32,000 bases of DNA from Nitratidesulfovibrio vulgaris str. Hildenborough (GTDB lineage: Bacteria > Desulfobacterota > Desulfovibrionia > Desulfovibrionales > Desulfovibrionaceae): NCBI RefSeq assembly GCF_000195755.1, contig NC_002937.3, forward strand, positions 2,820,001 through 2,852,000, read 5' to 3'. The position numbers and the translations under genes are program-made. Positions 1-32,000 of this stretch are shown here, piece after piece. The notes under the pieces were generated by a model that worked only from the letters and a program-made list of their open reading frames with translations, had not been told where the DNA came from and did not search any database. Each line of letters opens with the position of its first letter. Position 1 is the first letter of the stretch.

Positions 1-2
1 CC

Positions 3-347
3 ATGCACGTGGGCACCTACCAGATGCTTGAAGACGTGCGCGCCCTGTTGCTGGGGCAGGACTTCGAGGCGTGGGGCCTTGAGATGGACCCGCTACGCCC
101 CGGCCGCGTCCGCAGCCTGTTCAACGGCAAGCTCCAGTCCCAAGGCGTCAGCATCTACGCGCAGGAATGGCACACCCGCTACGCCCTGCACCTTCCGCCC
201 ACCGCCCTTGGTGGCGTCGCTGCCGAGACCGCCCCCGGCACGGTGCTGCCCCCGCTTTCCGGCGTGGGCCTGCGCTACCACCTGCAACCCGACGACGGCA
301 CACCCGATGCCGTGGACCTTGTGACCCTGCAACAGGGGAGGATGTGA
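3..347 (+). CDS. C-terminal part of a Mu-like late protein (gp37 position); may continue upstream of the window
   Basis: ORF open from the window edge and ends at TGA 345-347, 2 nt before the next ATG. High-GC third-position bias. Lies directly upstream of a small gp38-position ORF and the sheath gene. Assignment by synteny only. Confidence 0.5.
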   Translation: MHVGTYQMLEDVRALLLGQDFEAWGLEMDPLRPGRVRSLFNGKLQSQGVSIYAQEWHTRYALHLPPTALGGVAAETAPGTVLPPLSGVGLRYHLQPDDGTPDAVDLVTLQQGRM

Positions 348-349
348 CC

Positions 350-535
350 ATGTACGTCAAAGCCGCAGACGGCCTCCGGGTGCCCATGGAAGAGCACCCG
401 CGCCGCTACATCGAAGAGACCCCGGTGCATGTGCCGGATACGGCCTACTACCGTCGCCGCATGGCGGACGGGGATTTGATCGCCTTACCCGAACCCGACA
501 GCGTTAACGAGGAGGCCCGCCGTGGGAAGCGCTAA
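350..535 (+). CDS. Small (61 aa) Mu-like conserved protein at the gp38 position, upstream of the sheath gene
   Basis: ATG at 350 in the frame of track ORF 167..535 (MYVKAADGLRVPMEE...). Tightly packed, overlapping the sheath GTG start by 14 nt. Position typical of the small ORF preceding sheath genes in Mu-like prophages. Confidence 0.5.
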   Translation: MYVKAADGLRVPMEEHPRRYIEETPVHVPDTAYYRRRMADGDLIALPEPDSVNEEARRGKR

Positions 536-1943
536 CGTCTCGTTCGACACCGTGCCCGCGTCCGTCCGCAAGCCGGGCAAGTACCTTGAATTCAACACCC
601 GCCTTGCCGTGCGCACCTTGCCCGCCAACGCCCAGCGGGTGCTCATCGTGGCGCAGGCCCTGCCCGGTGCCAGCCAGCCCGTGTTGCAGCCGGTGGACGT
701 GTTCTCCGATGTGGAGGCCCGCGCCCTCTTCGGTGAAGGCAGCGTGGCGCACCTGATGGCCCGTGCCGCCATCGTGGCCAATCCCTACATCTCCCTCGCC
801 GTCATGGGCGTGGCGGACGACGCGGCAGGCGTGGCCGCATCCGGCAGTGTGGCCGTGGGCGGCACCGCCGTGAGTTCGGGCGTGCTCTCCGTGCAGGTGG
901 GCACGGCCATGGTGCGCGTGGCCGTGGCGAAGGACGATGCCGCAGCCGCCATAGCCACGGCCTTGGCCGCCGCCTTCGCCGCCACGCGCGACCTGCCCGT
1001 CACCGCCGGGGCACAGGCCGGGACGGTGACGCTGACCGCCCGCAACAAGGGCACGCTGGCCAACGCCATCCCGCTTGCTGCGCACAGCACCGCGCAGGGC
1101 ATCACGGTGACGCTGACCCCCATGAGCGGCGGGCAGGCCGACCCCGACATCAAGCCCGCGCTGGCCGCCGTCTACAATGCCGGGCATCACGTCATCATCA
1201 GCCCCTACGGTTCGCAAGAGGCCCTCACCGCCTTGCGCGACCATCTGGACGGCGTCTCGCACGCCATGGAACAGCGCGGGGCCGTGGGCGTGTACTCCAC
1301 CACCGGCACGCTGGCGCAGGGCACCACCCTCGCCGGGCAGGTGAACGCCGGGCGCATCACCGGCGGACTGTTGCCGGGCACGGCCAGTCTGCCGTGCGAA
1401 GTGGCCGCCGCTTACGGGGCCGTCATCGCCAGCGAAGAAGACCCGGCCCGCCCGCTGAACACCTTGCCGCTCAAGGGCATCGCCCCGCCCCCCGTCGCGG
1501 TGCGCCTTGGCCGCATGGAGCAGGAGACGGCCCTGCACAACGGCGTCACCCCGCTGGAAGTGGGGCCGGGCGACGTGGTGCAGATAGTGCGCGCCGTCAC
1601 CACCTACACCCGCGACCCGCAGGGCATTGAAGACGTGGCCCTGCTGGACCTGACCACCATCCGCACGCTGGACTATGTGCGCCGCGCCGTGCGCGACCGC
1701 ATCAGCCTGCGCTTCCCGCGCGAGAAGCTTTCGGAACGCACGCCCCCCAAGGTGCGTAGCGAGATTCTCGACGTGCTGCTGAAGCTTGAAGAACTGGAAG
1801 TGGTGGAGGCGGTGCAGGCCAACCTTCCCGCACTCATCGTGGAACGCGATGGCCAAGACCCCAACCGGCTGAACGCCAAGATACCGGTCGACGTGGTGAA
1901 CGGGCTGCATGTGTTTGCGGGCCGCATCGACCTGCTTCTATAA
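522..1943 (+). CDS. Contractile tail sheath protein (Mu gpL-like)
   Basis: 473-aa ORF with a GTG start. Size and position (before tube, chaperone and tape measure) fit a sheath. N-terminus SFDTVPASVRKPGKYLEFN and C-terminal part LEELEVVE...INAKIPVDVVNGLHVFAGRIDL are typical of Mu/P2-type sheath proteins as I recall them. Confidence 0.88.
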   Translation: MGSANVSFDTVPASVRKPGKYLEFNTRLAVRTLPANAQRVLIVAQALPGASQPVLQPVDVFSDVEARALFGEGSVAHLMARAAIVANPYISLAVMGVADDAAGVAASGSVAVGGTAVSSGVLSVQVGTAMVRVAVAKDDAAAAIATALAAAFAATRDLPVTAGAQAGTVTLTARNKGTLANAIPLAAHSTAQGITVTLTPMSGGQADPDIKPALAAVYNAGHHVIISPYGSQEALTALRDHLDGVSHAMEQRGAVGVYSTTGTLAQGTTLAGQVNAGRITGGLLPGTASLPCEVAAAYGAVIASEEDPARPLNTLPLKGIAPPPVAVRLGRMEQETALHNGVTPLEVGPGDVVQIVRAVTTYTRDPQGIEDVALLDLTTIRTLDYVRRAVRDRISLRFPREKLSERTPPKVRSEILDVLLKLEELEVVEAVQANLPALIVERDGQDPNRLNAKIPVDVVNGLHVFAGRIDLLL

Positions 1944-1954
1944 TAATCGCCCCC

Positions 1955-2017
1955 TTGCCATGTGTAGCTTTTTGCGTATCTTATAGTCACTTTTACAAAC
2001 TACACATGGCAGGGAGG
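1955..2017 (+). promoter_or_regulatory. Putative promoter/operator and RBS of the low-GC cassette
   Basis: TTGCCA (1955-1960), 16-nt spacer, TATCTT (1977-1982). Perfect 12-bp inverted repeat TGCCATGTGTAG (1956-1967) / CTACACATGGCA (2000-2011) with a 32-nt AT-rich spacer. GGGAGG (2012-2017) lies 4 nt before ATG 2022. Confidence 0.35.
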
Positions 2018-2021
2018 CACT

Positions 2022-2849
2022 ATGAGTCAACATGCGACGTGGCGCGAAGAAATGGTCATCAACCTAACTGGGGGCATGGCTGATGAACATGAAATTGACG
2101 CCGGGGTGCTCTGTGAATCCTTGACTGGTTTGACTAAGCTCGCGGAGAAAACGCGAGCATCAATTTATAGAGATGCTAAGATTTCCATCAAAATAAAAGG
2201 TGGTTTTAAAGAAGGTTCATTCGATTACTCTATTGTTTTTGACATGTTTGCTGCTGTAGCCCCTGTTGCCCCTCAACTTGTCAAAACAATAAAGGAAGTT
2301 ATAGAATTCAGGAAGTTTTTGAATGGGGGAGAGCCTGTGAAAACTGAACCTGAAGCTAATAATAGTTCAAGAGTTGAAAACAATAGTGGCGCAACAATGG
2401 TCGTCCAAAACAGTACTATAATAATCAATAATAGCCCCTTAACAACAAAGGCACTTCAAAAGTTTTTTTCACCACTCGGCAGTGGAATAAATGCTTTTGA
2501 AGTAAGCGACAGCGAAGAAAAAAACGTTACAGTTGGCTCTCAAGAAAAGAATTTGTTCTTAGATACAACATCAAAAGAAGTAGATTCAAATGATTCTGAA
2601 AGAATTCTCGAAATTCTAACAGCTCAAATGGATGGAAAGCCAAACGGATGGCGCTTTTACGATGTTGAAGAAGAAATTGAATTTTCAGCAGGAGTTGCTG
2701 ACTCAAGTTTTCTTATGGCTGTAAATTCTGGTAAATATGGAATTCTTCGAGGAAGCCACGTATCCGCAACAGTCCGTACAAACAGGATGATAGTAGATGG
2801 CCGACGAAGAACAGAAAGAACAATAATTAGTCTTATTCCGATTGAATAA
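2022..2849 (+). CDS. Orphan 275-aa soluble protein in a low-GC accessory (moron-like) cassette; function unknown
   Basis: Clean ORF with its own SD and ATG. About 32-33% GC in hand-counted lines against about 65-75% in the flanks. A/T-rich codon usage. No hydrophobic segments. Two-part architecture joined by an N/S/T-rich linker (EANNSSRVENNSGATMVVQNSTIIINNSPLTT). I recognise no family. Confidence 0.8.
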   Translation: MSQHATWREEMVINLTGGMADEHEIDAGVLCESLTGLTKLAEKTRASIYRDAKISIKIKGGFKEGSFDYSIVFDMFAAVAPVAPQLVKTIKEVIEFRKFLNGGEPVKTEPEANNSSRVENNSGATMVVQNSTIIINNSPLTTKALQKFFSPLGSGINAFEVSDSEEKNVTVGSQEKNLFLDTTSKEVDSNDSERILEILTAQMDGKPNGWRFYDVEEEIEFSAGVADSSFLMAVNSGKYGILRGSHVSATVRTNRMIVDGRRRTERTIISLIPIE

Positions 2850-2868
2850 AGCAATACACCTCGAATCA

Positions 2869-2898
2869 AAGCCCCGCCACTGCGGGGCTTATCTTTTA
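2869..2898 (+). terminator. Rho-independent terminator of the low-GC cassette
   Basis: AAGCCCCGC (2869-2877), loop CACT, GCGGGGCTT (2882-2890), followed by ATCTTTTA. Confidence 0.7.
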
Positions 2899-2984
2899 TA
2901 TACTGAACTCCTTCCATATAGAGTGACGTTATATTCTAACATACCATACTCTGACATCAACAATGTAACGGGTAGGAGTATGCC

Positions 2985-3359
2985 ATGGCCCTGAAGGAAT
3001 ACCTCGGCGCAATCGTGCTGGAAGTGGACGGCAAGGAATACGAGGTCGAATCGGTAGACATCGACCACAAGTCAGGCCGCAAACTGGTGAAGACCATGAA
3101 CCGCAAGGGCAGGCCCAGCGGCTATGCCGAAGGCGTCCACGAATGGACGCTGAAGATATCCGCCCCCGTGCCCAAGGAAGGCGGCCCGGACTGGAACAGC
3201 ATCGTGGGCGCAAAGCTGACCATCTACCCGGTGACGCCCGGCGGCAAACGCACGTCGTACCTTGATTGCGTCGCCCTCGATGACGCCGACAAGTACAACG
3301 TGGACAACGAGGCGAAAGTGGATGTGACACTGGCGGCCATGGACAAGGTTGTAGAATAG
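2985..3359 (+). CDS. Tail tube protein (Mu gpM-like)
   Basis: 124-aa ORF with SD GGTAGGAG 2971-2978. Size and position between sheath and chaperone genes fit a tube protein. Somewhat more A/T at third positions than neighbouring phage genes. Confidence 0.8.
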   Translation: MALKEYLGAIVLEVDGKEYEVESVDIDHKSGRKLVKTMNRKGRPSGYAEGVHEWTLKISAPVPKEGGPDWNSIVGAKLTIYPVTPGGKRTSYLDCVALDDADKYNVDNEAKVDVTLAAMDKVVE

Positions 3360-3484
3360 GACACGCCCCGGCGCACGCCGCGTTGTCCAGCCGTCGCAGA
3401 CGGCGCAAGCCCGCAAGGGAAGCTTGCTTCCCCAAGGGCGGCACAGGCCCTGAAGGCGAAACCTGAAGGGCCGTCATCTGGTCA

Positions 3485-3541
3485 GACAACGAGGCCAAGG
3501 TCGACGTGACGCTGGCGGCCATGGACAAGGTTGTAGAATAG
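3485..3541 (+). pseudogene. 57-bp relic of the 3' end of a second tail-tube allele (duplicate of 3303-3359)
   Basis: Both copies encode DNEAKVDVTLAAMDKVVE plus TAG. The 5 nucleotide differences (GCG/GCC, AAA/AAG, GTG/GTC, GAT/GAC, ACA/ACG) are all synonymous third-position changes. The relic frame is closed by TGA at 3464-3466 and similarity stops exactly at 3485. Confidence 0.85.
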
Positions 3542-3556
3542 CGAGGAGCACAGACC

Positions 3557-3886
3557 ATGAGCATGAAGAACGCCACCGGCAAGGGCACGCTGGCCATCGG
3601 CTACCGCGACGAGGCAGGCACCTGCCACAAGGACTTCGAGATGCGCCTTCCCACGCTGGAGGACATCGAAGAGGCCATAGCCGATGCGGGCGAAGGGGCC
3701 TGTCAGGCGCGTGTCAGCCGTCATGTATGGGCACGCACCATCACCCGCCTTGGCACCCTGCCTGCCGAGGCCATCGACGCCAGCCTTCTGGCAGGCCTTG
3801 CCGACGTGGAATACGGCCGCTTCGCCGATGTGGAGGCCAGCATCAGAAAAAAGCTGCTGGCCGAGAGCGAGAGCTCCGGCAGTTGA
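3557..3886 (+). CDS. Tail assembly chaperone, short form (Mu gp41 / P2 gpE analogue)
   Basis: 109-aa acidic ORF between the tube and tape-measure genes. Contains a slippery site near its 3' end. Confidence 0.8.
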   Translation: MSMKNATGKGTLAIGYRDEAGTCHKDFEMRLPTLEDIEEAIADAGEGACQARVSRHVWARTITRLGTLPAEAIDASLLAGLADVEYGRFADVEASIRKKLLAESESSGS

Positions 3887-4041
3887 GAGCGGCGGAACTG
3901 GCCCTAGTGCGTCACGGTTTCAGCCTTGCGGACATACGCAGCCTGACCGTGCCTGAACTGCAAAGCTACATCGACCTTCTGACGGGCCGCACCTCCACCG
4001 GAGGGCAACGCTTCGTCAACCGAAGGCTGAAGGGGAGATAG
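3557..4041 (+). CDS. Tail assembly chaperone, long form made by a programmed -1 frameshift at 3847-3853
   Basis: The -1 frame (track ORF 3727..4041) is open across the slippery site and continues 63 codons (…KKAAGRERELRQLRAAEL…RRLKGR) to TAG at 4041, 3 nt before the tape-measure ATG. This is the canonical G/GT or E/E' arrangement. Confidence 0.7.
3847..3853 (+). promoter_or_regulatory. -1 ribosomal frameshift slippery heptamer A_AAA_AAG
   Basis: Zero-frame codons are AGA AAA AAG (3845-3853), so the heptamer is phased as X_XXY_YYZ. Same heptamer as E. coli dnaX. Confidence 0.7.
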
Positions 4042-4044
4042 CGC

Positions 4045-5985
4045 ATGGGAGACATGGCCCTGCAACTGCGCCTGCAACTGCGCGACCAGATGGGCGCACG
4101 GGCCACCCGCGCCCTTGAGGACGTGCGCCGGGCCGCCGGGGGAGCCTCCACGGCGGCCTCGGCCCTCGGCCGTAACACGGCAGCCCTTGGCCGGGTCAAC
4201 TTCAACGGCATGGTGCAGGGGCTGAAGCGCGTGGAACAGGCGGCCACCGCTGCCATGCGTGGCCTGAAGCGCATGGGCGGCACGGCCTCCGAGGTCATGA
4301 AGGCGGCCGGTGGCGTCGGGGCCGGTGCCATGGCGGGCGGCTACGTCGCAGGCCGCGCCTTGGCCCCGGCCATAAGCTACGAATCGAAACTGGCCAGCAT
4401 GGCCAACGTGGCCTTCAACGACCGGGACGCCGCCGGGCGCATGGCGGGCATGAAGGAACTGGACGCCGCCGTGAAGCGCGCCACCGACGTGGGCGGCGGT
4501 TCGCGCGAACAGGCCGCCGATGCCCTGAACACCATGCTGGCCATGGGCATGAAGTCCGACACGGCCACGAACCTTCTGCCGCAGTTGCAGAAGGCCGCCA
4601 CCGCCTCCGGTGCGGACGTGAACGAGCTGGCCCAAGTGGTGATGAAGGGCATGGAACAGGGCTTCTTCACCGAGGCGCAGGTGGGCGAGGCCATCGACAA
4701 GGCGGTGAAGGCGGGCGAGGCCGGACAGTTCGAACTGAAGGACATGGCCCGCTGGCTGCCGCAAATCATGGCCAACGCCAAGGGCATGAAGGGCATGGCG
4801 GGTTACGAGGCCATCCTCGCCTCGTTGCAGGGCGTCTCCGTCGTCACCGGCACCAACGACCAGGCAGGCAACGCCCTGTTCAACCTGCTTGGCAAGGTCA
4901 CCAGTGCCGACACCGCACTGGACTTCAAGAAGCAGGGCATCGACCTGCACGGCACGCTGGCCAAGGCCACCGCCAACGGCCAGTTGCCGCTGGATGCCTT
5001 CGTGGAACTGGTCGAACGGCAGGTGGTGGGCAAGGACAAGCGCTTCCAGTCCATCAAGGCGCAGATGGCCACGGCCAAGGACGGCGAGAAGATGGCCCTC
5101 ATGGAACAGGCGGCCGACCTGTTGCAGGGTTCCGCCATAGGCAAGGTGGTGCAGGACCGCGAGGCGTCGCTGGCCCTCGCCGCCATGCTGACGCAGAAGC
5201 AGCGCATCGCCGAGGTCAAGGGCCAGCTTGGCGAAGCCCACGGCGCGGTGGATACCTCCTTCGCCGTCATGTCGAACACGTCCGACTTCAAGCTACAGCA
5301 GGCGAAGAACGAGGTGGAGTCAGCCCGCTCGCGGATGCTGGCAGACGTGAAGCCCGCACTGGACGGGGCCGTGGCCGGGGCCACCGGCCTTGCCAGCCAG
5401 TTCCCCAAGCTGACCACCGTGGCGATGGAAGCCTCTACCGCCATAGGTGTCATGGCGGCGGCCGCTGCCGCCTATGGCGGGGCGGGTGTGCTCATGGGGC
5501 GCGGCGGGGCTGGTGGCGTGGGCAGGCCCCGCGATGAACACGGCCGGTTCATCAAGCCCGAAGCGGGCGCGGCAGGTTCCGCCACCGGACGCGCGGGCGC
5601 GTTCAAGGCCGGGGCGAAGGCTGGCGGCCTGCTGGCCTTGGCCGGGGCGGGGGTGAACGCCGTCATGACCGAATCCAGCGACATGAGCCGGGCCGAGAAG
5701 AACGCGGCCCACATGGGCACGGCAGGCGGTGCAGTGGGCACGATGGCGGGCACCGCCGTGGGCGCGGCGCTGGGGTCCGTTGTCCCCGTGGTGGGCACGG
5801 CCATTGGCGGTGTGCTGGGGGGCATGGCGGGTGGCTGGCTTGGCGACATGCTGGGCCAGAAGCTTGGCGACCTCATCTTCAAGGACGAATCCACCGTGCG
5901 CGTCGAGAGCGTGGTGCAGGTGGACGGCCGCGAACTGGCCCGCGCCGTGAATGAGGTGAATGGGCGCGACGCCGCACGTCGTTAA
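4045..5985 (+). CDS. Tail tape measure protein
   Basis: 646-aa Ala/Gly-rich ORF directly after the chaperone pair. C-terminal glycine-zipper-like hydrophobic stretch (GTAGGAVGTMAGTAVGAALGSVVPVVGTAIGGVLGGMAGGWLG), typical of tape measure proteins. Confidence 0.88.
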   Translation: MGDMALQLRLQLRDQMGARATRALEDVRRAAGGASTAASALGRNTAALGRVNFNGMVQGLKRVEQAATAAMRGLKRMGGTASEVMKAAGGVGAGAMAGGYVAGRALAPAISYESKLASMANVAFNDRDAAGRMAGMKELDAAVKRATDVGGGSREQAADALNTMLAMGMKSDTATNLLPQLQKAATASGADVNELAQVVMKGMEQGFFTEAQVGEAIDKAVKAGEAGQFELKDMARWLPQIMANAKGMKGMAGYEAILASLQGVSVVTGTNDQAGNALFNLLGKVTSADTALDFKKQGIDLHGTLAKATANGQLPLDAFVELVERQVVGKDKRFQSIKAQMATAKDGEKMALMEQAADLLQGSAIGKVVQDREASLALAAMLTQKQRIAEVKGQLGEAHGAVDTSFAVMSNTSDFKLQQAKNEVESARSRMLADVKPALDGAVAGATGLASQFPKLTTVAMEASTAIGVMAAAAAAYGGAGVLMGRGGAGGVGRPRDEHGRFIKPEAGAAGSATGRAGAFKAGAKAGGLLALAGAGVNAVMTESSDMSRAEKNAAHMGTAGGAVGTMAGTAVGAALGSVVPVVGTAIGGVLGGMAGGWLGDMLGQKLGDLIFKDESTVRVESVVQVDGRELARAVNEVNGRDAARR

Positions 5986-6004
5986 AGCACAGGGGAACAA
6001 CGCC

Positions 6005-7345
6005 ATGTCATGGAAGGACGACCTGCTGGACGCCAGCTTCAGGGGTGCCCGTTTCGAGGTGGTACGCACCCGCGACCACGGCGAACGCGCCCTCGTGGAA
6101 CACGAATACCCCTACCGCACCGGGGCAGAGATAGAAGACATGGGCCGCAAGGCCCGGCGCATCAGCATCACGGCGGTCTTCTACGGCCCGCACTACGCGG
6201 CCGGGCTTGCAGCCCTGCTTGAGGCACTTGAGAAGCCCGGCAAGGGCGAACTCATCCACCCCGTCTTCGGTTCCGTCACCGTATGCGCCGGGCCGTATGA
6301 CGTGACCCACGACGCGGAACAGCCCGACCACGCCGAAGTCACGCTCGAATTCGTCGAAGCCGAACCCGACAACCCCTTCCTTGCCGCCGGGGGCCGCCGT
6401 GCCACCGCGCAGGACGCGGGCCTGCGCGTGGAAGACGCCACCGCGCGTGGCAAGGAATCCAGCGGCCGCAGCTTCGCCCGCTGGCTTGAGAGCACCGCCA
6501 AGGGCTACAGCCTTGCCGAACGTGTGTGCGTGCTGGATACGCTGCATCAGGGGCTGGACGACTACGACGCAACCCACGGCGCACTGCGGGCGTCGGTCAG
6601 CTATCTGGACTTCCCCACCGCCTACCTTGCAGACCTCGACGCCGCGCAGGACATGGCCGCCGGGCCGTTCCGCCCCGTGCAGGGCTTCGGCAACTGGCAA
6701 CGCCTGTCGCAGACCTTCCAAGGCCGCAGCCTCACGGGTGGACGCGGGCGGGCCTACCCCGTGGGCACCAGCGCCTACGCGGGGGCCGTGCTCACCGGCC
6801 CGGCATCCGGCCTTGCCGAGCCTTCGCCCGTGGTGCCCGGTGACGAGGCCCCCCGGCCCGGGCGTCCTGCCCCGGTAGCCGACCTCTCCAGCGCACAGGG
6901 TGCCGCCACGGCCCATGCCGCCGCTCACGCCGAAGTGGCCCAGACGGCGCTCTTGGCGGGCGAGGCCGCCACCCTGCTTGAAGCGGAGACCGAGACCCCC
7001 ACGCTGACCCCGCACGAGGTCGAAGCCGTGGTGGGCAACGTGCGCGACCGCCTGCAAGACGCCATGGACGCCAGCCGCGCCGTGCTGCCGCCCCACGAAT
7101 CGCACCCCGTGGTGGAGGCCCTGCGCGATGCCGCCCTTGCAGTGCAGCAGCTTGGGGCCTTGGTGCTGGCGGCCCGTCCGCCCTTGGTGCGGTACGCCGT
7201 GCCGTGGCCCTGCAACCTGCACCTTCTGGCGCACCGCCTGTACGGCGACCATCGCCGCGCCGCCGAACTGGCCCGGCTGAACCCGGCCCTGCGCAATCCC
7301 AACTTCATCGCCCAAGGACAGGAGTTGCTCATCCATGCCCAGTGA
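6005..7345 (+). CDS. DNA circulation protein (Mu gpN-like) with a C-terminal LysM/gpX-like segment
   Basis: ATG at 6005 (MSWKDDLLDASFRGARFEV...EHEYPYR), the typical gpN N-terminus. C-terminal NLHLLAHRLYGDHRRAAELARLNPALRNPNFIAQGQELLI resembles the P2 gpX LysM-type motif. The track ORF start at 5960 overlaps the tape measure and is less likely. Confidence 0.85.
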   Translation: MSWKDDLLDASFRGARFEVVRTRDHGERALVEHEYPYRTGAEIEDMGRKARRISITAVFYGPHYAAGLAALLEALEKPGKGELIHPVFGSVTVCAGPYDVTHDAEQPDHAEVTLEFVEAEPDNPFLAAGGRRATAQDAGLRVEDATARGKESSGRSFARWLESTAKGYSLAERVCVLDTLHQGLDDYDATHGALRASVSYLDFPTAYLADLDAAQDMAAGPFRPVQGFGNWQRLSQTFQGRSLTGGRGRAYPVGTSAYAGAVLTGPASGLAEPSPVVPGDEAPRPGRPAPVADLSSAQGAATAHAAAHAEVAQTALLAGEAATLLEAETETPTLTPHEVEAVVGNVRDRLQDAMDASRAVLPPHESHPVVEALRDAALAVQQLGALVLAARPPLVRYAVPWPCNLHLLAHRLYGDHRRAAELARLNPALRNPNFIAQGQELLIHAQ

Positions 7346-8489
7346 CCGCAGGCCCGACGAGACCATGCCCGCAGGCGACGCACGGCAGGCCGTCACCCTC
7401 ATGGTGGGCGGACGCGAGCACCGCGACTGGACGAGCTATGAAGTGGACAGCGACCTCATGACCCCGGCGGACGCATGGCGCGTCACGCTTGGCATCCCCG
7501 CCGACGCCGTTCCGGCCACGGTGCGCCCGTGGGAGCCGGTGCAACTGGCCGTGGGCGGCGAGGTGGTGCTTTCGGGCCGCATCGACAGGGTGGAACGCAC
7601 CATCCGCAAGGGTGAGCTTTCCCTTGCCATCAGCGGGCGCGACGGGGCCGCCGTCTTGGTGGACTGTTCCGCGCCCATCTTCACCTCACGGCAGGTGAGC
7701 GTGGCAGAGGCCGTGGCGCACATCGTGCGGCCCTTGGGCATTGCGCGGGTGCGCGTGGCCCCCGGTGCCGGACATGCGACCGGGCACACTGCCGGGCACG
7801 AGAAGGTGGCCATCGAACCGGGCATGACCGCATGGGACGCCCTGCAACAGGTGGCAGAGGCCAACGGCATGTGGCCGTGGTTCACCCCTGACGGCACCTT
7901 GGTGGTGGGAGGCCCCGACTACACCGCGCCCCCCGTGGGCGGCCTCGTGCTGCGCATGGACGGCACGCAGAACAACGTGCTGGCCCTCTCCGTGCGCGAC
8001 GGCGTGGAAGAACGCTTCTCCGAGGTGACGGTGCTTGGCCAGAGTCACGGCACCGAAGACGCCGAAGGGGCCAACGCCCTGCGCGCCATAGCCCGCGACA
8101 CCACGGCGCAGTGGCACCGCCCCCGCGTTGTGGTAGAGGCGGAATGCGACACCGCCGACATGGCCCGCCGCCGGGCACGCAAGCTGCTTGCCGACGGCAG
8201 ACTGGCCGCCTTCGAGATGCGGGCCACCGTGCGCGGGCACCGGGCCAGCGGCCCCACGGGCGATGGCGTGCTGTGGCAACCCGGCCAGCGGGTGCGGGTG
8301 CTGTCAGAACCGCACGGCATCGACGGCGTGTTCTTCCTCACCCGGCGCACGTTCATGGGCGGCCGCGACCGGGGGCAGGTGACGGAACTGACGCTGAAGG
8401 AGGACGGCGTGTGGCTGCCCGACGTGGGCAAGCGCCGCAAGCGCAAGAAGCAAGATGGCGAGACAGCCATGGAGGTGGTCGACCTATGA
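7335..8489 (+). CDS. Baseplate hub protein (Mu gpP / gp44, gpD-like)
   Basis: 384-aa ORF overlapping the gpN stop. Synteny between gpN and gp45. Basic C-terminal tail KRRKRKKQ. An alternative start at ATG 7365 is possible. Confidence 0.82.
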   Translation: MPSDRRPDETMPAGDARQAVTLMVGGREHRDWTSYEVDSDLMTPADAWRVTLGIPADAVPATVRPWEPVQLAVGGEVVLSGRIDRVERTIRKGELSLAISGRDGAAVLVDCSAPIFTSRQVSVAEAVAHIVRPLGIARVRVAPGAGHATGHTAGHEKVAIEPGMTAWDALQQVAEANGMWPWFTPDGTLVVGGPDYTAPPVGGLVLRMDGTQNNVLALSVRDGVEERFSEVTVLGQSHGTEDAEGANALRAIARDTTAQWHRPRVVVEAECDTADMARRRARKLLADGRLAAFEMRATVRGHRASGPTGDGVLWQPGQRVRVLSEPHGIDGVFFLTRRTFMGGRDRGQVTELTLKEDGVWLPDVGKRRKRKKQDGETAMEVVDL

Positions 8490-9112
8490 TGCAGCAGGTG
8501 AACCGGGCCATAGCCCGGACGTTGGCCACCATCCGGCAGGCGTTCCGCGCCCGCCTCACCGGGCTGGACACCACGCCCGGCGTCCAGTTGGCGCAGGCCG
8601 GGGGGCTGGCAGGCGAACAGGTGCAGGCGTCCGAACTGTTCCAGCACTTCGGCTTCACCTCCGCCCCGCCCGAAGGCACCCAGTGCATCGTCCTGCCCCT
8701 AGGCGGCAAGACGGCCCATAGCGTGGTGGTGGCCACAGAGAACGGGGCCTACCGGGTGCAGGCCCTGCAAGGCGGCGAGGTGTGCATCTATAACCAGTGG
8801 GGCGCGAAGATAACCCTGAAGAAGGAGAAGATTGTGGAGGTGGATTGCGACCACTTCCGGGTGGCCGCCAAGGAATCCATCACGATGGACACCAAGCGCT
8901 GGCAGGCCACCGCCACCGAGGGCACCGCCTTCACCTCGCCTTCGGTTGCCATTGGCGGCATGGGCGGGCTGAAGGCACAGGCAAGACTCGACGCCGACCT
9001 GCAAACGACAGGCGACGTGACCTCACAGGGAGACCACGTCGCCGGGGGCATCAGCTTGCGTCATCACCGCCATCCGGGGGATTCGGGCGGGACGACTGGA
9101 GAATCTTTATAA
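8486..9112 (+). CDS. Baseplate spike/assembly protein (Mu gp45, P2 gpV-like)
   Basis: ATG 8486 overlaps the gpP stop (ATGA). MMQQVNRAIARTL...ELFQHFGFTSAPPEG is typical of gp45/gpV. C-terminal RHHRHPGDSGGTTG is a His-rich spike-tip motif. The last few codons (GAA TCT TTA TAA) lie in the AT-rich insert. Confidence 0.85.
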   Translation: MMQQVNRAIARTLATIRQAFRARLTGLDTTPGVQLAQAGGLAGEQVQASELFQHFGFTSAPPEGTQCIVLPLGGKTAHSVVVATENGAYRVQALQGGEVCIYNQWGAKITLKKEKIVEVDCDHFRVAAKESITMDTKRWQATATEGTAFTSPSVAIGGMGGLKAQARLDADLQTTGDVTSQGDHVAGGISLRHHRHPGDSGGTTGESL

Positions 9113-9506
9113 GGCTGAAGGTGGACAGGAAGAAATCGAGCTTCACAAAGAACAATCCTATGGCAACACATATCGCACCAGAGACTACGCTCTCACCGAG
9201 GGCTATAAGCCCACCACTGCTGTTAGTGCTGTTCCACCACTGATGCGGCTTCATCTCCACAATTACATAGACGTTTGATATCACAATCAAGCATCCGACA
9301 ATAAGTAAGCATAGTATTGCACCATTTGCCACTACATTTAACAAAGAAGAAAAGGATGTTGTTTTTTCATTATGTTCTATTTTCATATCATTACTAGACA
9401 TTTCTCTTAAATCTTTATTTTCATACGTTTCTGCCTTTTGGCGTAGCTGATGGTTTCCTTTGATAGCCTTCTCTTTGATAATTTTATATTCAGTTTGCAC
9501 AGGCAC
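9051..9506 (-). CDS. Small membrane protein (up to 151 aa, 2 predicted TM segments) in a low-GC antisense cassette; function unknown
   Basis: Only long ORF in the AT-rich block from ~9095 to ~9510 (about 32% GC in a hand-counted line). Charged N-terminus, then hydrophobic segments LLNVVANGAILCLLIVGCLIVISNVYVIV and LIALGESVVSGAICVAIGLFFV. Start is uncertain: GTG 9506, GTG 9500 (7 nt after GGAG) or ATG 9401. The last ~14 codons run antisense into the gp45 3' end. Confidence 0.62.
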   Translation of the reverse strand: MPVQTEYKIIKEKAIKGNHQLRQKAETYENKDLREMSSNDMKIEHNEKTTSFSSLLNVVANGAILCLLIVGCLIVISNVYVIVEMKPHQWWNSTNSSGGLIALGESVVSGAICVAIGLFFVKLDFFLSTFSLIKILQSSRPNPPDGGDDAS

Positions 9507-9572
9507 ACTCCATGATCAAACACTGAACCCCTTCCATCTGTCTTCCTCCCCATCCGCCACTAGAGTGGCGGC

Positions 9573-9929
9573 ATGGGAACCGACGCAGCCATAGACACCT
9601 TACGGGGAGACTATACGGGCGAACGCATCGCCAGTCTAGCCAACGCCGTCTATCTTCGCCTCATGACGCCCCTTGGTTCATGGTGGGGCGACACCGCCTT
9701 GGGGTCGCGCCTGCATGAACTGGCGCGAGAGAAAGACGTGCCCCGCATCCGCCGCCTTGCCGCACAGTACGCGGAACAGGCCCTTGCCCCGCTTCTCACG
9801 GACGGACGCGCCCGCGCCGTCACTGTCACCGCAGCCCAGCCGCACGACGGCCGCTGCATCCTGCATGTCACCGTCACAGACGCCACGGGCCAGCAACAGA
9901 CCTACACGCATCCGGTGCGTGTGGCCTAG
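9573..9929 (+). CDS. Baseplate protein (Mu gp46 family, gpW/gp25-like)
   Basis: 118-aa ORF. Motifs LANAVYLRLMTPLGSWWGD...GSRLHEL fit the gp46 family. Synteny between gp45 and gp47. Confidence 0.85.
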   Translation: MGTDAAIDTLRGDYTGERIASLANAVYLRLMTPLGSWWGDTALGSRLHELAREKDVPRIRRLAAQYAEQALAPLLTDGRARAVTVTAAQPHDGRCILHVTVTDATGQQQTYTHPVRVA

Positions 9930-9938
9930 GGGCAAGCC

Positions 9939-11000
9939 ATGCCGTACATCATCCCCACCTTCGAGGAGATACGCGCCGCCATCTTGCGCGACGTGAAGAA
10001 CCTGCTGCCCGATGCCGACACAGGCCCGGACAGCGACGCCTTCATCCGCGCATCCAGCACGGCCTCTGCCGTCTATGGCCTGTATCAGCACCAGCTATGG
10101 ATGGCCCGCCAGATTCTGCCCGACACGGCAGACACCGCCTACCTCGAATCCCACGCGGCCCTGCGCGGCATCACCCGCAAGCCCGCCACCAAGGCCACGG
10201 GCACCCTCACCCTGACGGGAACGCCGGGCGCGGCGGTGCCTGCGGGCACAGAGGCGCGGCACATTGCCACCGGGGCCACCTTCCGCACCACGGCCACCGT
10301 GACACTGGCCGAGAACGGCACGGCCAGCGCGCCGTGCGAGGCCTCCGTGGCAGGGGCCATGCCGGACTACACGGCAGAGACCGTGCTTTTAACGGCACCG
10401 CCGCCCGGCGTGCAGTCCACCGCAAGCCTTGCCCTCACGGGCGGCACCGACACGGAGACAGACGCCGAACTGCTGGAACGCCTGCTGTTCCACTTCCGCA
10501 ACCCGCCCGGCGGCGGCAACCGTTACGACTACAAGCGGTGGGCCTTGGAGGTGCCGGGCGTCACCGGGGCATGGGTCTACCCCCTGCGCCGGGGCTTGGG
10601 CACCGTAGACGTGGCCGTGCTTTCGGCGGGCGGCCTGCCCACACCGGAACTTCTGGCGGCGGCACAGGCCCGCATCGACGAACGTCGGCCCGTGGCCTGC
10701 AAAGACGCGCGGGTGCTTGCGCCCACCCCCTTGGCGGTGGACGTGCGCGTGCGGGTGCGCCTTGCGGGCACCACGTTGCCCGTGGTCACCACACAGGTGC
10801 GCGAGGCGCTGGCCGCACACTTCGGCGGCTATGAACCGGGCGGGCAGGTGGTGCGTTCGCGGCTTGAGGCCATCATCTCCGGCATCCCCGGCGTGGCAGA
10901 CCGCGACCTGACGGCCCCGTCCGCCAACGTGCAGGCCGTGGTGGACGCCTCCCGCGTGGAATGGCCGCGCCTTGGCACCGTCACCGTGGAGGCCATGTGA
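9939..11000 (+). CDS. Baseplate J-like protein (Mu gp47)
   Basis: 353-aa ORF. N-terminus PTFEEIRAAILRDVKNLLPDADTGPDSD and internal ETDAELLERLLFHFRNPPGGGNRYDYKRWALEVPGV are classic baseplate-J signatures. Confidence 0.9.
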   Translation: MPYIIPTFEEIRAAILRDVKNLLPDADTGPDSDAFIRASSTASAVYGLYQHQLWMARQILPDTADTAYLESHAALRGITRKPATKATGTLTLTGTPGAAVPAGTEARHIATGATFRTTATVTLAENGTASAPCEASVAGAMPDYTAETVLLTAPPPGVQSTASLALTGGTDTETDAELLERLLFHFRNPPGGGNRYDYKRWALEVPGVTGAWVYPLRRGLGTVDVAVLSAGGLPTPELLAAAQARIDERRPVACKDARVLAPTPLAVDVRVRVRLAGTTLPVVTTQVREALAAHFGGYEPGGQVVRSRLEAIISGIPGVADRDLTAPSANVQAVVDASRVEWPRLGTVTVEAM

Positions 11001-11590
11001 CGGGCCACGCCACCTTGCTGCGCAGCCTGCTGCCGCCCGTCAGTTACGACCCGTCAGGCCCGCGCCTTGCCGCCGCGCTGGACGCCGAAGGCATGACGCT
11101 GGACGCGGCGCTGGCCCTTTCGGTGCGGGCCGTCATGGGCATCAACCCCTTCCGGGCGCAGGAATGGATGGAAGACTGGGAGCGCGTCTACGGCCTGCCA
11201 GACCCGTGCGCCCGCGAGGGGCGCACCTTGCAGGAGCGCATAAGCGCGCTGGCCGTGGCCGTGCAGGAACAGGGCGGCATCTCGCGCGGGTACTTCGTGC
11301 GGCTTGCCGCCATGCTTGGCTACGCCGTCACCATCCGCGAGCATGTGCCGTTCCGGGCCGGTTCGCGGGCGGGCGACGCCCTGACCAACGGCGACTGGCA
11401 ATGGGCGTGGACGCTTCAGGCCCCCGCCGTCACCACGCACCGCTTCCGGGCGGGACGAAGCGCGGCGGGCGAACCCTTGGCCTTCTGGGGTGACGAGGTG
11501 CTGGAATGCGCCATCCGCCGTCTGGCCCCGGCCCATACCGTGGTGCTGTTCGCCTACGGGCCGCGCCTCGCCACCGCCACGCACGGCTAA
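10997..11590 (+). CDS. Tail/baseplate protein (Mu gp48, DUF2313-like)
   Basis: GTG 10997 overlaps the gp47 stop (GTGA). LLRSLLPPVSYDP...WERVYGLPDPC...TLQERISAL is typical of the gp48/gpI-like family. Synteny supports the call. Confidence 0.8.
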   Translation: MTGHATLLRSLLPPVSYDPSGPRLAAALDAEGMTLDAALALSVRAVMGINPFRAQEWMEDWERVYGLPDPCAREGRTLQERISALAVAVQEQGGISRGYFVRLAAMLGYAVTIREHVPFRAGSRAGDALTNGDWQWAWTLQAPAVTTHRFRAGRSAAGEPLAFWGDEVLECAIRRLAPAHTVVLFAYGPRLATATHG

Positions 11591-11673
11591 CCTTCGATGC
11601 ACACCGAACGTCAGAACGCTAACGCCGCCCCCGCCCGTGACGATGGCCGGGCAAGGGACGGCAAGGAGGGCAC

Positions 11674-12564
11674 ATGCACCGCATAGACACACCCGACGCC
11701 ACGCCGGACCACCGCTTCACCGAAGGCGACCCCACCATACCCTTGCCCGCCACCATGGTCAGCGCGGACTGGCTGAACGCCGTGCAGGAAGAGCTTTCGG
11801 GCGTCATCGAGGGCGCGGGCCTCACGCTGGACAAGGCGAGGCACGACCAGTTGAAGGCCGCCATCATCAAGATGATAACCGACCGGGCCGCACCGCTGGC
11901 CACCACGGAACAGGCGGGGCTGGTGGAACGCGCCACCGATGCCGAAGCGCAGGCCGGAACGGATGGCGAACGCTATGTGACGCCGAAGCAACTGAAGGAC
12001 GCCGTGGGGACTACTGACCTGACGGCAATGATGCGCGACACGTTCGCGGGCTGCATCGTGGAGTGGGAGTGCGAGACCATTCCCAACCTGACGGACGGAA
12101 AGCCACTCGGTATCGAACTTAACGGGGCCATCGTCAGTCTTACGGCGTGGCCTCGCCTCCTGCGCAAGTGGTGCGGGGCTGCGAAGAATGCAACCGCTCC
12201 GGCGTGGTATCGCTGCAACGCCTCCGGTGTGCGCGACGCCACCGGCGACCACATCCGGTTGCAGGATAGACGCGGAGAGTTCGCGCGCGGTTGGGACCAC
12301 GGGCGCGGCGTCGATGCGGGGCGCGTGCTGGGTAGTGCGCAGGGCGATGCCATCAGGAATATTGTCGGCTCAATGGGGTCGATTACGGCAGTTGTTGCCG
12401 GGACTGCTTCAGGAGCCTTTACCGTTACCACTCCATCCAATCGTTCTGCGGGCAGCAGTACCGGGCCTACATGCGACTTTACCTTCGACGCTTCTCGCGT
12501 CGTCCCCACCGCCAGCGAAAACCGCACCCGCAACATCGCCACCCTGTACCTCGTCCTCGTCTAG
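11674..12564 (+). CDS. Tail fibre protein
   Basis: SD AAGGAGGG lies upstream. N-terminus MHRIDTPDATPDHRFTEGDPTIPLPATMVSADWLNAVQEEL is the conserved fibre attachment region. C-terminal LQDRRGEFARGWDHGRGVDAGRVLGSAQGDAIRN is a tail-collar/fibre-tip motif. Confidence 0.85.
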   Translation: MHRIDTPDATPDHRFTEGDPTIPLPATMVSADWLNAVQEELSGVIEGAGLTLDKARHDQLKAAIIKMITDRAAPLATTEQAGLVERATDAEAQAGTDGERYVTPKQLKDAVGTTDLTAMMRDTFAGCIVEWECETIPNLTDGKPLGIELNGAIVSLTAWPRLLRKWCGAAKNATAPAWYRCNASGVRDATGDHIRLQDRRGEFARGWDHGRGVDAGRVLGSAQGDAIRNIVGSMGSITAVVAGTASGAFTVTTPSNRSAGSSTGPTCDFTFDASRVVPTASENRTRNIATLYLVLV

Positions 12565-12573
12565 GAGCACCCT

Positions 12574-13113
12574 ATGCCTACGATTCACACCTATGATGCC
12601 CGCACCCGTGAATACCTGAAGACCGTCGACTGGACGCCCCCGAACGAGTGGGTGGCCTTGCCCGCCGACGCCACGACGCTACAGCCCCCGGCACAGCGCG
12701 AAGGGTTCGCCTGTGTGCTGAACCTTGCGGGGGACATTTGGGAACACATTGAAGACCACCGGGGCAAGGCGGGTTACGTCGAAGGACAGCCCCACACCGT
12801 GCGCGACCTTGGGCCGCTTCCTGCCGGGTGGAGCACTACCGCCCCTGAAGTGCCGCTGGCGGACACCAAGGCCGCAAAGCGTGCGGAGATTACCGCCGGG
12901 CATGATGCCGCCCTCGCGGGAGTGGTCGCCATCTCCGACCCCACGCCCACGGTGGTGGCTGTTGAGGCGGCACTGCTGGCCACCACCGACCCCACCGGGC
13001 TGGACTACGCCCGGCAGAAGCTTGCCGCGCGCCGGGCAGAGCTTGAAGCACAGGTCGAAGCCGCAACGACGGCGGAAGCGGTCATGGCCGTGGTGGTGAG
13101 CTATCCGGTGTAA
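12574..13113 (+). CDS. Tail fibre assembly chaperone (Mu gpU / P2 gpG-like)
   Basis: 179-aa ORF 9 nt after the fibre gene. N-terminal pattern (Y...T.EY......P..W..LPADATTL.PP) is typical of fibre assembly proteins. Confidence 0.72.
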   Translation: MPTIHTYDARTREYLKTVDWTPPNEWVALPADATTLQPPAQREGFACVLNLAGDIWEHIEDHRGKAGYVEGQPHTVRDLGPLPAGWSTTAPEVPLADTKAAKRAEITAGHDAALAGVVAISDPTPTVVAVEAALLATTDPTGLDYARQKLAARRAELEAQVEAATTAEAVMAVVVSYPV

Positions 13114-14619: not shown

Positions 14620-14706
14620 TGGTGCCGAGGGAGGGACTCGAACCCTCACGGGATTTCTCCCACTACCCCCTCAAGATAGCGTGTCTACCAATTCCACCAC
14701 CTCGGC
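14620..14706 (-). tRNA. tRNA-Leu (anticodon GAG), type II with long variable arm, CCA encoded
   Basis: Reverse complement reads GCCGAGGTGGTGGAATTGGTAGACACGCTATCTTGAGGGGGTAGTGGGAGAAATCCCGTGAGGGTTCGAGTCCCTCCCTCGGCACCA. Acceptor GCCGAGG/CCTCGGC; anticodon stem CTATC/GGTAG with loop TTGAGGG; T arm GAGGG-TTCGAGT-CCCTC. Nearly identical in its 5' half to E. coli tRNA-Leu(GAG) as I recall it. Confidence 0.92.
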
Positions 14707-30711: not shown

Positions 30712-31088
30712 CGCTAGCCTCCTCGCAAGGTGATGAATGAAATGACGGTTCGCAATTAGTACAGCAATCAGCGGGAGATGGGAACATCATTTATCAATTT
30801 TGTCCTTATTGTAAACAGCATATAAAATCAATATGTTATAACTTGACATTATTGTTATAATAAAATACGCGTATTTTCAGTATGTTAACTTTGTAGCATT
30901 AGATTACGGTCTGTTTTAATTCCATGCATACTGAATGACAAAACAGTCGTTTTTTAATATATTGATTTCAGTGCAGTTATGGAATGACAAGCCACCACCG
31001 AGATTTCTGTGCAACCGTTTTAGTGGTCTGAAAAACTACCATTTACAGCATCGTCAAACGATTAAACGCGCAAACACACAGGGTCGCC
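30712..31088. promoter_or_regulatory. AT-rich divergent control region between the liv operon and the epimerase-like gene
   Basis: About 375 bp that is far more AT-rich than anything else in the host part. Perfect TTGACA at 30843-30848. Repeated TGTTATAA (30834-30841, 30853-30860) and TATGTTA (30832-30838, 30881-30887). No convincing complete promoter could be assembled by eye. Confidence 0.45.
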
Positions 31089-32000
31089 ATGTTAGCCATC
31101 CCATTCCACAAAATGAGTCCCGGCGGAAACACCACCATCCTCGTCCCCCACTCCGCTGTAGATGCCCTTCACAGGGCCCCTGTCGCCACGCGGCTCATGC
31201 ACGGCCTCCACCTTGGGGCGGAACAGGTGGGCTTCATCGACATGGGGTCTTCCATCCCCCGCCTCGACATGATGGGAGGCGAATTCTGCGGCAATGCCTG
31301 CCGCTGCCTTGCCGCACTCCTCCTGCTTGAAGGACGGGTGCAGGACGACGGACAAGGAGGGAGCACAGGGCGCATCGCCGCCTCCGGCGTATCGACTCCG
31401 GTACACTTCACAGCAAGGCACCTGCCTGACGGTGCAGTGGACGCCTCCATACGCATGGACCTTCCCGCCATGCCAGACATGGTCGACATCGCACCGGGCA
31501 TGAGCCTTGTCCGCCTTCCCGGCATCAGCCACCTGTTGCTCGACCTTGCGCTTCACCCCTACCCCGGACGCCCCGGTGAGACAGTGCCAGGCATCCTGCG
31601 GCGCTACGGACTGGATGAGGCACCCGCTGCGGGGTGCATCTGGTTCGGTGAAAACGGCGGAAGGCGGTTCATCAAGCCGGTAGTGCATGTCCGGGACACC
31701 GCCACCATCCATGAAGAGACGGCGTGCGGGTCGGGGACGCTGGCGCTGGCATTGCACCTCTCGCGCCACGCCGCCCCTGCGGCTGATGCCATCGACAAGG
31801 CCGCAAGCCCCGCAACGGGCAAGCCAGCCGAACGCATCACCCGCGTACCCCGTGATTGCTGCACTCCTCCGGATGATGCGGAGTGCACGAACGACGCGTG
31901 GCACGTCATCGGACAACCAAGCGGTGCCGTCATCCGTGCCACAGTGAAGGCGGGTGCCGACGGCATCGAGGCATGGATTGGCGGGCCTGTGACCCTCATC
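31089..32000 (+). CDS. DapF-superfamily PLP-independent amino-acid epimerase/racemase, 5' partial view (runs off the window)
   Basis: Not in the ORF track because no stop falls inside the window. My translation: MLAIPFHKMSPGGNTTILV...MMGGEFCGNACRCLAALLL...IHEETACGSGTLALALHL... Two Cys motifs (FCGNACR, ACGSGT) sit at DapF-like spacing. The frame is open to position 32000. Confidence 0.7.
   Translation, partial: MLAIPFHKMSPGGNTTILVPHSAVDALHRAPVATRLMHGLHLGAEQVGFIDMGSSIPRLDMMGGEFCGNACRCLAALLLLEGRVQDDGQGGSTGRIAASGVSTPVHFTARHLPDGAVDASIRMDLPAMPDMVDIAPGMSLVRLPGISHLLLDLALHPYPGRPGETVPGILRRYGLDEAPAAGCIWFGENGGRRFIKPVVHVRDTATIHEETACGSGTLALALHLSRHAAPAADAIDKAASPATGKPAERITRVPRDCCTPPDDAECTNDAWHVIGQPSGAVIRATVKAGADGIEAWIGGPVTLI

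Follow-up and report, generated by a model that had tools for sequence, protein, structure and literature searches.

The late promoters of phage Mu have a −10 element and no −35 element, and the activator protein C binds there to an imperfect 16-bp dyad centred at −43.5 (PMC2582627; bioRxiv 10.1101/2025.05.02.651988). Mor acts likewise at the Mu middle promoter P_m (PMC2582627). In Mu-like phages of Pseudomonas, variable hotspots have been described as regions of genomic plasticity (PMC4378225). Here we compare with these systems a 16-nucleotide (nt) sequence that occurs twice in a Mu-like prophage of Nitratidesulfovibrio (Desulfovibrio) vulgaris str. Hildenborough, within a window of 32,000 nt (NC_002937.3, positions 2,820,001 to 2,852,000, forward strand). 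We consider it about 75% probable that this shared 16-mer is the operator of the prophage's Mor/C-family late activator and makes up the upstream half of Mu-type late promoters, because architecture, copy number, position and an associated activator gene all match Mu. Binding of the activator to the 16-mer is predicted by analogy with C. In kind the element is a known one, a new member of the Mu Mor/C promoter class. The cis-element itself appears to have been unannotated previously, and we found no description of it in the literature searched.

A Mu-like myovirus prophage has its tail module at positions 1–13,000 of the window, where the backbone has a guanine-plus-cytosine (GC) content of about 68–72%. 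Two low-GC islands break this module. Island 1 (1944–2984, GC 0.40) lies between the sheath gene and the tube gene (2985–3359, plus strand; phrog_185 tail tube, 5.8e-29), the first backbone gene past the island. Island 2 (9113–9572, GC 0.42) lies between gp45 and the baseplate gene gp46 (9573–9929, plus strand; Pfam GP46, 1.5e-20), which opens the downstream late unit. Each island has a cargo gene, cargo1 on the plus strand (2022–2849) and cargo2 on the minus strand (9051–9500). The 16-mers ACTGAACTCCTTCCAT (2902–2917) and ACTGAACCCCTTCCAT (9522–9537), both on the plus strand, differ at one base and stand 67 nt from the tube ATG (2985) and 35 nt from the gp46 ATG (9573), exactly as the sequence-only reading had placed them. 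It had offered several meanings for the pair, and one of these, a shared regulatory element, is supported by the motif's family, copy number and spacing, which mark it as a predicted upstream operator of late promoters.

A search of both strands of the 32 kb with up to two mismatches returned only these two sites, where 0.05 were expected, and none of 100 dinucleotide shuffles of the window gave two or more motif matches. That the pair is a chance match between two AT-rich stretches is scarcely credible. Islands compared only with each other did reach a best match of at least 15/16 in 28 of 2000 Markov-1 shuffles (1.4%), and the motif length was chosen after the match had been seen, so this statistic alone is suggestive; the comparative data settle that the motif is real. 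Dozens of related phages have members of the motif family at fixed positions. Moreover, a weight matrix derived from 26 dyads found in other phages, with this genome excluded, ranks the two sites first and second in the window (23.2 bits at 9522 and 21.1 bits at 2902, with the next match at 13.1). Exact matches to the 16-mer in IMG/VR (n = 23) are mostly unrelated, with 20 in lower-GC contigs that are uninformative, although they count on the side of chance, and 3 in canonical blocks of the type found before lysis genes. An Rfam scan of the whole window (E up to 5) found no family at either 16-mer site.

Related loci were fetched via the gp44 protein, as 14 IMG/VR contigs and, by profile search, 80 GTDB genomes, and they span Desulfovibrionaceae, many Betaproteobacteria and Pseudomonas. 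A pattern search of IMG/VR for the motif plus CCTGTC gave 43 loci. Fetched loci are labelled with L-numbers; L174 is the same Hildenborough prophage, extended upstream by exact-protein look-up. The profile query was needed, as a scan of genome contigs with the single gp44 protein found no relative. A megablast of window positions 1–10500 against the annotated phage collection gave no match.

At the gp45–gp46 junction of the relatives, which number more than 30 Mu-like prophages, the motif opens a conserved block whose order is (A)CTGAACCCCTTC, a pyrimidine-rich spacer, a palindrome and the ATG of gp46. The form (A)CTGAA[C/G]nCC[T/A]TC is found at this junction in L001–L007, L038–L043, L053 and many betaproteobacterial prophages, and the distance from motif start to gp46 ATG is 51–53 nt in about 30 loci from two bacterial classes. 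In the window, the left edge of the block is the imperfect dyad at 9522–9537 (half-sites TGAA..TTCC), the predicted Mor/C-family activator site of the gp46 late promoter. It is followed by a plus-strand spacer starting CTGTCTTCC (9538–9560), which takes in the 5′ arm of the palindrome (9554–9560; extended, 9549–9560), and by the −10-like hexamer TAGAGT in the palindrome loop (9561–9566, plus strand). The pentamer CTGTC in the spacer is kept throughout the window's clade at all three promoter positions described below. The dyad is perfect in some relatives, as CTGAA-N4-TTCAG in L052 and as TGA-N6-TCA in both L052 and L044.

The geometry of the block fits a Mu-type late promoter. Of 78 unique strict-motif hits, 47 have a hexamer of the form NANNNT that starts at block index 40/41, against 8.9% of control windows, and such a hexamer occurs almost nowhere else in the block. 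An ATG stands at block index 52–54 in 53 of the 78 hits. The distance from dyad centre to −10-like hexamer is 31.5–32.5 nt. The start codon comes about 6 nt after the hexamer. Should transcription begin at the gp46 ATG, with its A (9573) as the first base, as we predict, the window's dyad centre (9529.5) would fall at −43.5 and the hexamer at −12 to −7. A sigma-70 scan found no paired −35/−10 elements on the plus strand at either the 2902 or the 9522 site. Each 16-mer would then be an imperfect 16-bp dyad that overlaps the place of the missing −35, with a −10 hexamer about 32 nt downstream of its centre.

Four other identities for the motif were rejected. A sigma-54 or extracytoplasmic-function (ECF)-type −35 element has no conserved partner at the right spacing, the sole conserved A/T hexamer being 31 nt off; a tRNA T-arm-like att site lacks the complementary arm. 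The TGA of the motif ends non-homologous open reading frames (ORFs) in L047, L050 and L055 and not elsewhere, so it is no conserved stop codon. As a Shine–Dalgarno (SD) sequence for minus-strand cargo, the motif works in L006 only.

Copy number and position point the same way. A whole-locus scan found a second full block about 3.3–4.2 kb upstream of the sheath gene, directly before the gene for the Mu gpI protease. Complete relatives have three copies in late-gene orientation, before the lysis genes, gpI and gp46; the lysis copy precedes an SLT transglycosylase (endolysin) in L163 and a holin-like membrane protein in L150. In the Hildenborough prophage, the copies stand before gpI, the tube gene and gp46, and the pre-gpI copy of ACTGAACCCCTTCCAT (L174:6287) matches the gp46 copy at 16/16, with identity running over 25 nt. 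The relative L156 has a gene for a Mor-family protein (PF08765, 2.2e-13) beside that for GemA and upstream of the lysis copy, in the order GemA, Mor-family activator, low-GC cargo, block, lysis genes. Phage SuMu, an independent lineage, uses a dyad of its own, GTGGAAGnnCTTCC, which is present three times and no more: between the annotated Mor-family late activator (gp16) and the amidase gene, before gpI, and before gp46. A TAnnnT hexamer lies at the same offset from each of these SuMu dyads.

The likeness to Mu thus extends to a −10 without a −35, a 16-bp dyad over the −35 region, a Mor/C-family gene (in the relatives), and several copies before late operons, including lysis and gpI, as for the C-dependent P_lys, P_I, P_P and P_mom and the Mor-dependent P_m. 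At Mu P_lys, a terminator after gene C is followed by the C site and the −10, and the same order is seen at the sheath–tube site of the window. There are also differences. The dyad here is TGAAC..CTTC, against a TTAT..ATAA type at Mu P_lys in our own reading of the Mu sequence, and the tail promoter here stands before gp46, in Mu before gene P. In Mu itself, gp45 and gp46 overlap with no element between them. In L127 (4889–4990) and also in L146, L149 and L164, which belong to a different Mu-like phage, a block lies between Mor-like and C-like genes, the position of Mu P_m. The block of this group is followed by a second motif, AATACTGAACACCTTCCAT, close to the window's TATACTGAACTCCTTCCAT. 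This second motif forms the 5′ arm of an intrinsic terminator; the gp46-site motif of L085 and L088 is also a terminator arm.

The sequence-only reading had put both motifs just inside the right boundary of an island. They do mark the right edge, and the 9522 copy nevertheless lies outside the island, as the first base of the block conserved in relatives. It is a backbone element, because the block is kept whatever the cargo and even without cargo, as in L040, L045, L056, L071 and L085; in L040 the block begins 7 nt past the gp45 stop codon. It would form part of the conserved promoter of the gp46 baseplate operon, with kin elements before gpI and, in close relatives, before the lysis genes. 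Cargo at the gp45–gp46 junction (J2) always lies directly left of the block, and its left boundary is the stop codon of the upstream gene. The islands end at the motif because cargo fills the slot between that stop codon and the operator. A third low-GC island of the Hildenborough prophage, about 4 kb upstream of the window (L174:5700–6286, GC 0.33–0.43), has its right edge at the pre-gpI motif; its plus-strand ORF stops 7 nt before ACTGAACCCCTTCCAT, upstream of the gpI protease gene. All three islands of this prophage therefore end at a motif (3/3), and in these phages every late promoter has a cargo hotspot at its edge. Low-GC genes of foreign origin (morons, some of them defence-related) would gather between the stop codon of the preceding operon and the operator. 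The idea that the two islands share a common origin is unsupported, as the cargo is unrelated at each junction in each relative.

Such sharp boundaries could also mark the motif as a site of recombination or a cassette junction (integron-like, or a homology anchor) through which cargo is captured and exchanged, with its promoter-like context secondary. Dozens of phages whose cargo is non-homologous switch from variable to conserved DNA at one and the same nucleotide, and the 25 nt identical at two sites of one prophage could support exchange between them. At the gp45–gp46 junction of L005 (7045–7350), two promoter blocks accompany a partial gp46 (residues 1–58) and a partial gp45 3′ end (residues 173–208), an arrangement that speaks for exchange of cassettes, with recombination taking place in the genes on either side. 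The duplicated tube-gene end in the window (3303–3359 and 3485–3541) is similarly scar-like. We nonetheless regard a cassette-end function, which the sequence-only reading had entertained, as unlikely. The motif is one-sided, the left boundary being merely a stop codon; cargo-free sites retain the block; there is no integrase among the neighbouring genes or other associated recombinase, nor a partner site as expected for an attC-type site. Recombination also leaves unexplained the fixed spacing of motif, −10 and ATG and the placement before lysis genes, gpI and gp46. The sheath–tube copy shares only the 16-mer with the other copies, which suits selection for a binding site better than a recent junction. 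Exchange does happen around the slots, as the scars in L005 and at 3303–3541 show, and the conserved block could serve there as a homology anchor.

The late-promoter reading also has to account for the copy at 2902–2917 (plus strand, 15/16), which stands at a non-canonical place, the sheath–tube junction (J1), and is predicted to be the activator site of an extra late promoter. Directly before it lies the intrinsic terminator of cargo1, found by terminator scan (AAGCCCCGC-CACT-GCGGGGCTT plus a T-run, 2869–2899, stem 2869–2890, plus strand). A −10-like TACCAT follows at 2942–2947 on the same strand (block index 41–46), a spacing that fits the canonical index 40/41. Transcription into the tube gene is predicted to start near 2954, which would give a 31-nt leader with the SD GGTAGGAG (2971–2978) before the ATG at 2985.

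Comparison across J1 links this promoter to cargo. Where J1 has no cargo it has no promoter either: L002 and L003 read TAAGGAGAGAACCCC-ATG, with the two genes 15 nt apart. Where J1 has low-GC cargo (the window, L006, L007, L170–L173 and L180), the cargo is separated from the tube gene by a copy of the dyad peculiar to that phage. L170–L173 have ACGCTGAAGTGCCGC at J1, to be compared with ACGCTGAAGCCCCGC at the gpI promoter of the same phage. L007 has ACTGAACACCTTC, with TATAGT in the loop of a CGCCAC-TATA-GTGGCG palindrome, and L006 has a weaker copy of the dyad. In L180, whose cargo1 homologue is 61% identical, the order is terminator, ACTGAACAGCTTCCTT, CATAAT (index 39–44), SD and tube gene, and the rest of the non-coding DNA around J1 has diverged. 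A stem homologous to the cargo1 terminator follows the cargo1 homologues in L170–L173, and an analogous terminator follows that of L180. Most likely, the 2902 copy restarts activator-dependent late transcription into the tube gene past a terminator-bearing moron. Standing behind the terminator of the inserted cargo, such a restart would keep the insertion non-polar. We hold this assignment with less confidence than that of the gp46 copy.

On the minus strand of the same region (2866–2960), a promoter-like TTGATG-16-TAGAAT with a TG extension points at the bidirectional terminator at 2869–2890. The predicted antisense RNA of about 60 nt would cover the sheath–tube dyad and carry GGAAGGAG. A minus-strand RsmY-like Rfam match at 2868–2964 is non-significant (19.5 bits against a gathering score of 57, E 0.84).

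Several points weigh against the assignment of both copies to activator-dependent late promoters. The position −43.5 depends on a start assumed to lie at the ATG, and the −10-like hexamers are weak in some loci, for example TATACC and CAATAT. The 2902 copy comes without the conserved CTGTC and without the tight palindrome, and its TACCAT is a modest −10. In L006 and L007, the sheath–tube dyad precedes a terminator-like palindrome, which fits only if transcription starts inside the palindrome. The activator gene lies outside the window, and its presence in this prophage is predicted from relatives. Finally, L085, L088 and the L127 group have an intrinsic terminator whose 5′ arm is the motif itself, which may thus have a second role there.

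The same junction bears on whether the motif acts in RNA instead, as an anti-SD or as the target of a Com-like regulator that, with the adjacent hairpin, controls translation of the tube gene and gp46. The anti-SD pairing noticed in the sequence-only reading stands as complementarity: ACTCCTTCC can pair at 8/9 positions with the tube SD region. It does not stand as structure, since the predicted folds do not pair the motif with the SD; this pairing is absent from the minimum-energy fold, which is itself no better than shuffles (z −0.33). The tube SD pairs there with 2945–2952, in a weak hairpin at 2945–2981 (CAUACUCU / AGGAGUAUG, plus strand), which would sequester it in read-through RNA, the 5′ arm lying upstream of the predicted start. 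This hairpin is found in both the minimum-energy and the centroid fold of 2895–3005, with an overall z of only −0.33. At gp46, the hairpin beside the motif sequesters the AUG (z −2.37) and covaries, and in Mu the Com protein, a small zinc-finger protein that binds just upstream, opens a hairpin over the mom start. Yet copies before lysis genes have motif and palindrome with the first gene about 100 nt away and no start codon nearby, and a dyad of DNA type, TGA-N6-TCA, lies at a fixed distance from a −10-like hexamer. We consider an RNA role for the motif quite improbable. A possible minus-strand reading frame beginning MEGVQ at both copies does not hold up either: at one site the ORF has 15 amino acids (aa), at the other it runs antisense to cargo1, and its ATG is unconserved, being lost in relatives whose motif ends CCCC, CCAC or CACC.

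A further difference from Mu is the palindrome around the −10: here the −10 lies in the loop of a covarying palindrome, and the predicted start coincides with the start codon. Before gp46 it reads CCCAUCCGCCAC-UAGA-GUGGCGG-C-AUGGG (9549–9577, plus strand), with the start codon (9573) in its 3′ arm, and a fold of 9515–9610 has −30.1 kcal/mol (z −2.37). A perfect stem of at least 7 bp centred on the −10-like hexamer is present in 61 of 76 motif hits, against 10% of controls. The stems comprise at least 10 different sequences, two of them different within one phage. In the betaproteobacterial set, 6 of 9 pairs show compensatory changes according to RNAalifold; 1-nt shifts of register in a MAFFT alignment of the hairpins hindered formal pair counting. 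Stems that vary and covary point to a conserved structure and not to a sequence-specific protein site. At gp46 and gpI, the start codon lies in the 3′ arm or directly beside it. In the copies that precede lysis genes, and in L007 at J1, a long GC stem with a T-run makes the palindrome an intrinsic terminator.

RNA that starts about 7 nt past the loop hexamer would lack the 5′ arm of the palindrome, and we therefore propose that the palindrome stops or masks read-through while activator-driven RNA escapes. Read-through transcripts would thereby be terminated or translationally masked, and those initiated at the promoter would not. From this follows a possibility that we offer only tentatively, namely that the late promoters of this Mu-like group are insulator-promoter composites. 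In such a composite, the −10 and the start would lie in the loop and 3′ arm of a covarying palindrome, with a full intrinsic terminator in some copies. Incoming transcripts, whether from morons or from lysogenic or middle transcription, would be terminated, or the first late start codon would be masked; transcripts driven by the activator would have their 5′ end within the palindrome, on the AUG or close to it (leaderless), and thereby evade this. The slot upstream of every late promoter would then be a safe harbour for cargo, and new hotspots such as the sheath–tube junction could be made viable by an operator copy behind the inserted terminator. If insulation holds, safe-harbour slots would account for the cargo and defence hotspots at late promoters.

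The cargo itself is diverse. Cargo1 encodes a 275-aa candidate defence protein, a low-GC moron with a DUF7946 N-terminus (phrog_3243, 2.4e-68; PADLOC PDC-S42, 9.4e-25); its residues 9–270 align with profile positions 4–285 of 302, and the PDC-S42 family is itself only a candidate. As expected of a moron, the gene has its own promoter-like TTGCCA-16-TATCTT (1955–1982), a terminator (2869–2890) and a GC content of 0.40, compared with about 0.68–0.70 in the backbone. A 22-nt inverted repeat in the cargo1 leader (1949–1970 and 1997–2018, 86% complementary) encloses TTGCCA-16-TATCTT and overlaps the cargo1 SD. L180 retains this repeat with compensatory changes (CCATGTG/CACATGG to CCGTGTG/CACACGG), which suggests an operator or an RNA hairpin controlling the moron. 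Cargo2 (minus strand) encodes a putative two-helix membrane protein, annotated as 116 aa from the ATG at 9401 (phrog_31912, 2e-104) and 100% identical to the Hildenborough "membrane protein, putative"; it is transcribed away from the promoter block. The 3′ end of its ORF overlaps that of gp45 convergently by 62 nt (region 9011–9112). A minus-strand promoter-like TAGACT-17-TATAGT lies inside gp46 (9610–9638), and a 14-bp terminator-like minus-strand hairpin lies inside gp45 just past the cargo2 stop codon.

The sequence-only reading had also raised a split two-gene system, a soluble sensor (cargo1) and a membrane effector (cargo2) delivered jointly with the motif as their signature. Both genes are low in GC and sit in one prophage, and a candidate defence protein and a small membrane protein could make such a pair. 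Among 5.8 billion proteins, however, cargo1 has 8 homologues and cargo2 only 2, neither has a homologue in 117 related loci, and the two co-occur only in this genome. Loci with cargo1 homologues have no cargo2 among their called genes, although these loci stop short of the gp45–gp46 junction. Of the cargo1 homologues with readable context, one lies in an island with integrase, methylase and helicase, and the others occupy J1 in other Mu-like prophages. The motif also bounds the third island of the prophage, which is unrelated, and joint delivery is highly improbable. A tblastn search of both cargo proteins against the annotated phage collection gave no match.

Across the relatives, the sheath–tube and gp45–gp46 junctions are recurrent variable slots, with gaps from a few bases to 1.7 kb, and the 62 cargo ORFs found there are almost all singleton families. 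PADLOC gave two weak matches only among ten large cargo proteins of relatives, so most cargo is unclassified. In L163, the DNA left of the pre-lysis block (1720–4718, oriented) encodes an ABC-3C-type conflict system, composed of Mrr_cat plus CTD12, a 99-aa protein and a DUF2326 ATPase. Slots at late promoters therefore do carry defence systems. In the Pseudomonas prophages the hotspot is present and the motif is weaker.

Like the morons of lambdoid and Mu-like phages and the defence hotspots of P2 and P4, these islands have deviant composition, their own promoter and terminator, fixed positions and variable content. Part of the cargo is defence-related, as in defence hotspots, with ABC-3C in L163 and PDC-S42 in the window. 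Unlike known morons and hotspots, the slots here abut the upstream edge of each activator-dependent late promoter, and at a promoterless junction, unlike known morons, the cargo comes with an extra copy of the operator. T4-type phages have promoter-early stem-loops (PeSLs), reportedly proposed by Arbiol et al. in 2010 as mobile regulatory cassettes, with early sigma-70 promoters in lytic phages. By this account, the units described here resemble PeSLs in being short, conserved promoter-plus-hairpin units repeated at the borders of hypervariable slots and in their possible use as homology anchors. Unlike PeSLs as so reported, they are late, activator-dependent and three or four per genome.

The remaining backbone genes of the tail module are those for the sheath (522–1943), a chaperone (3557–3886), the tape measure protein (4045–5985), gp43 (6005–7345), gp44 (7335–8489), gp45 (8486–9112) and gp47 (9939–11000). 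Downstream of the tube gene, ORFs 3557–3886 and 3727–4041 overlap, a layout as expected for a tail-chaperone programmed frameshift. The tube-gene end is duplicated as a 57-nt direct repeat (91% identical, including the stop codon); its copies flank about 125 nt of inserted GC-rich DNA, an arrangement that resembles a recombination scar. The tube–chaperone junction is a third variable junction, with a gap of 190 nt in L004. A tRNA gene (14623–14706, minus strand, 50.7 bits) lies shortly past the tail-fibre region, close to where the prophage probably ends on the right. A third AT-rich patch of the window (30730–31090, GC about 0.40) is chromosomal intergenic DNA flanked by divergent genes; the motif is absent from it, and the patch bears no relation to the islands of the prophage.

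The motif gives a predicted late-activator operator for Mu-like prophages of Desulfovibrio, of Betaproteobacteria and of the SuMu type, and should allow better annotation of their operons. It can also serve as a landmark, as accessory and defence genes are to be looked for between the preceding stop codon and the motif, so that slots can be found without protein homology. If the proposed insulation is true, it would explain where moron hotspots lie in the prophages of Desulfovibrionaceae and Betaproteobacteria, and how a terminator-bearing insert in the middle of a tail operon is tolerated.

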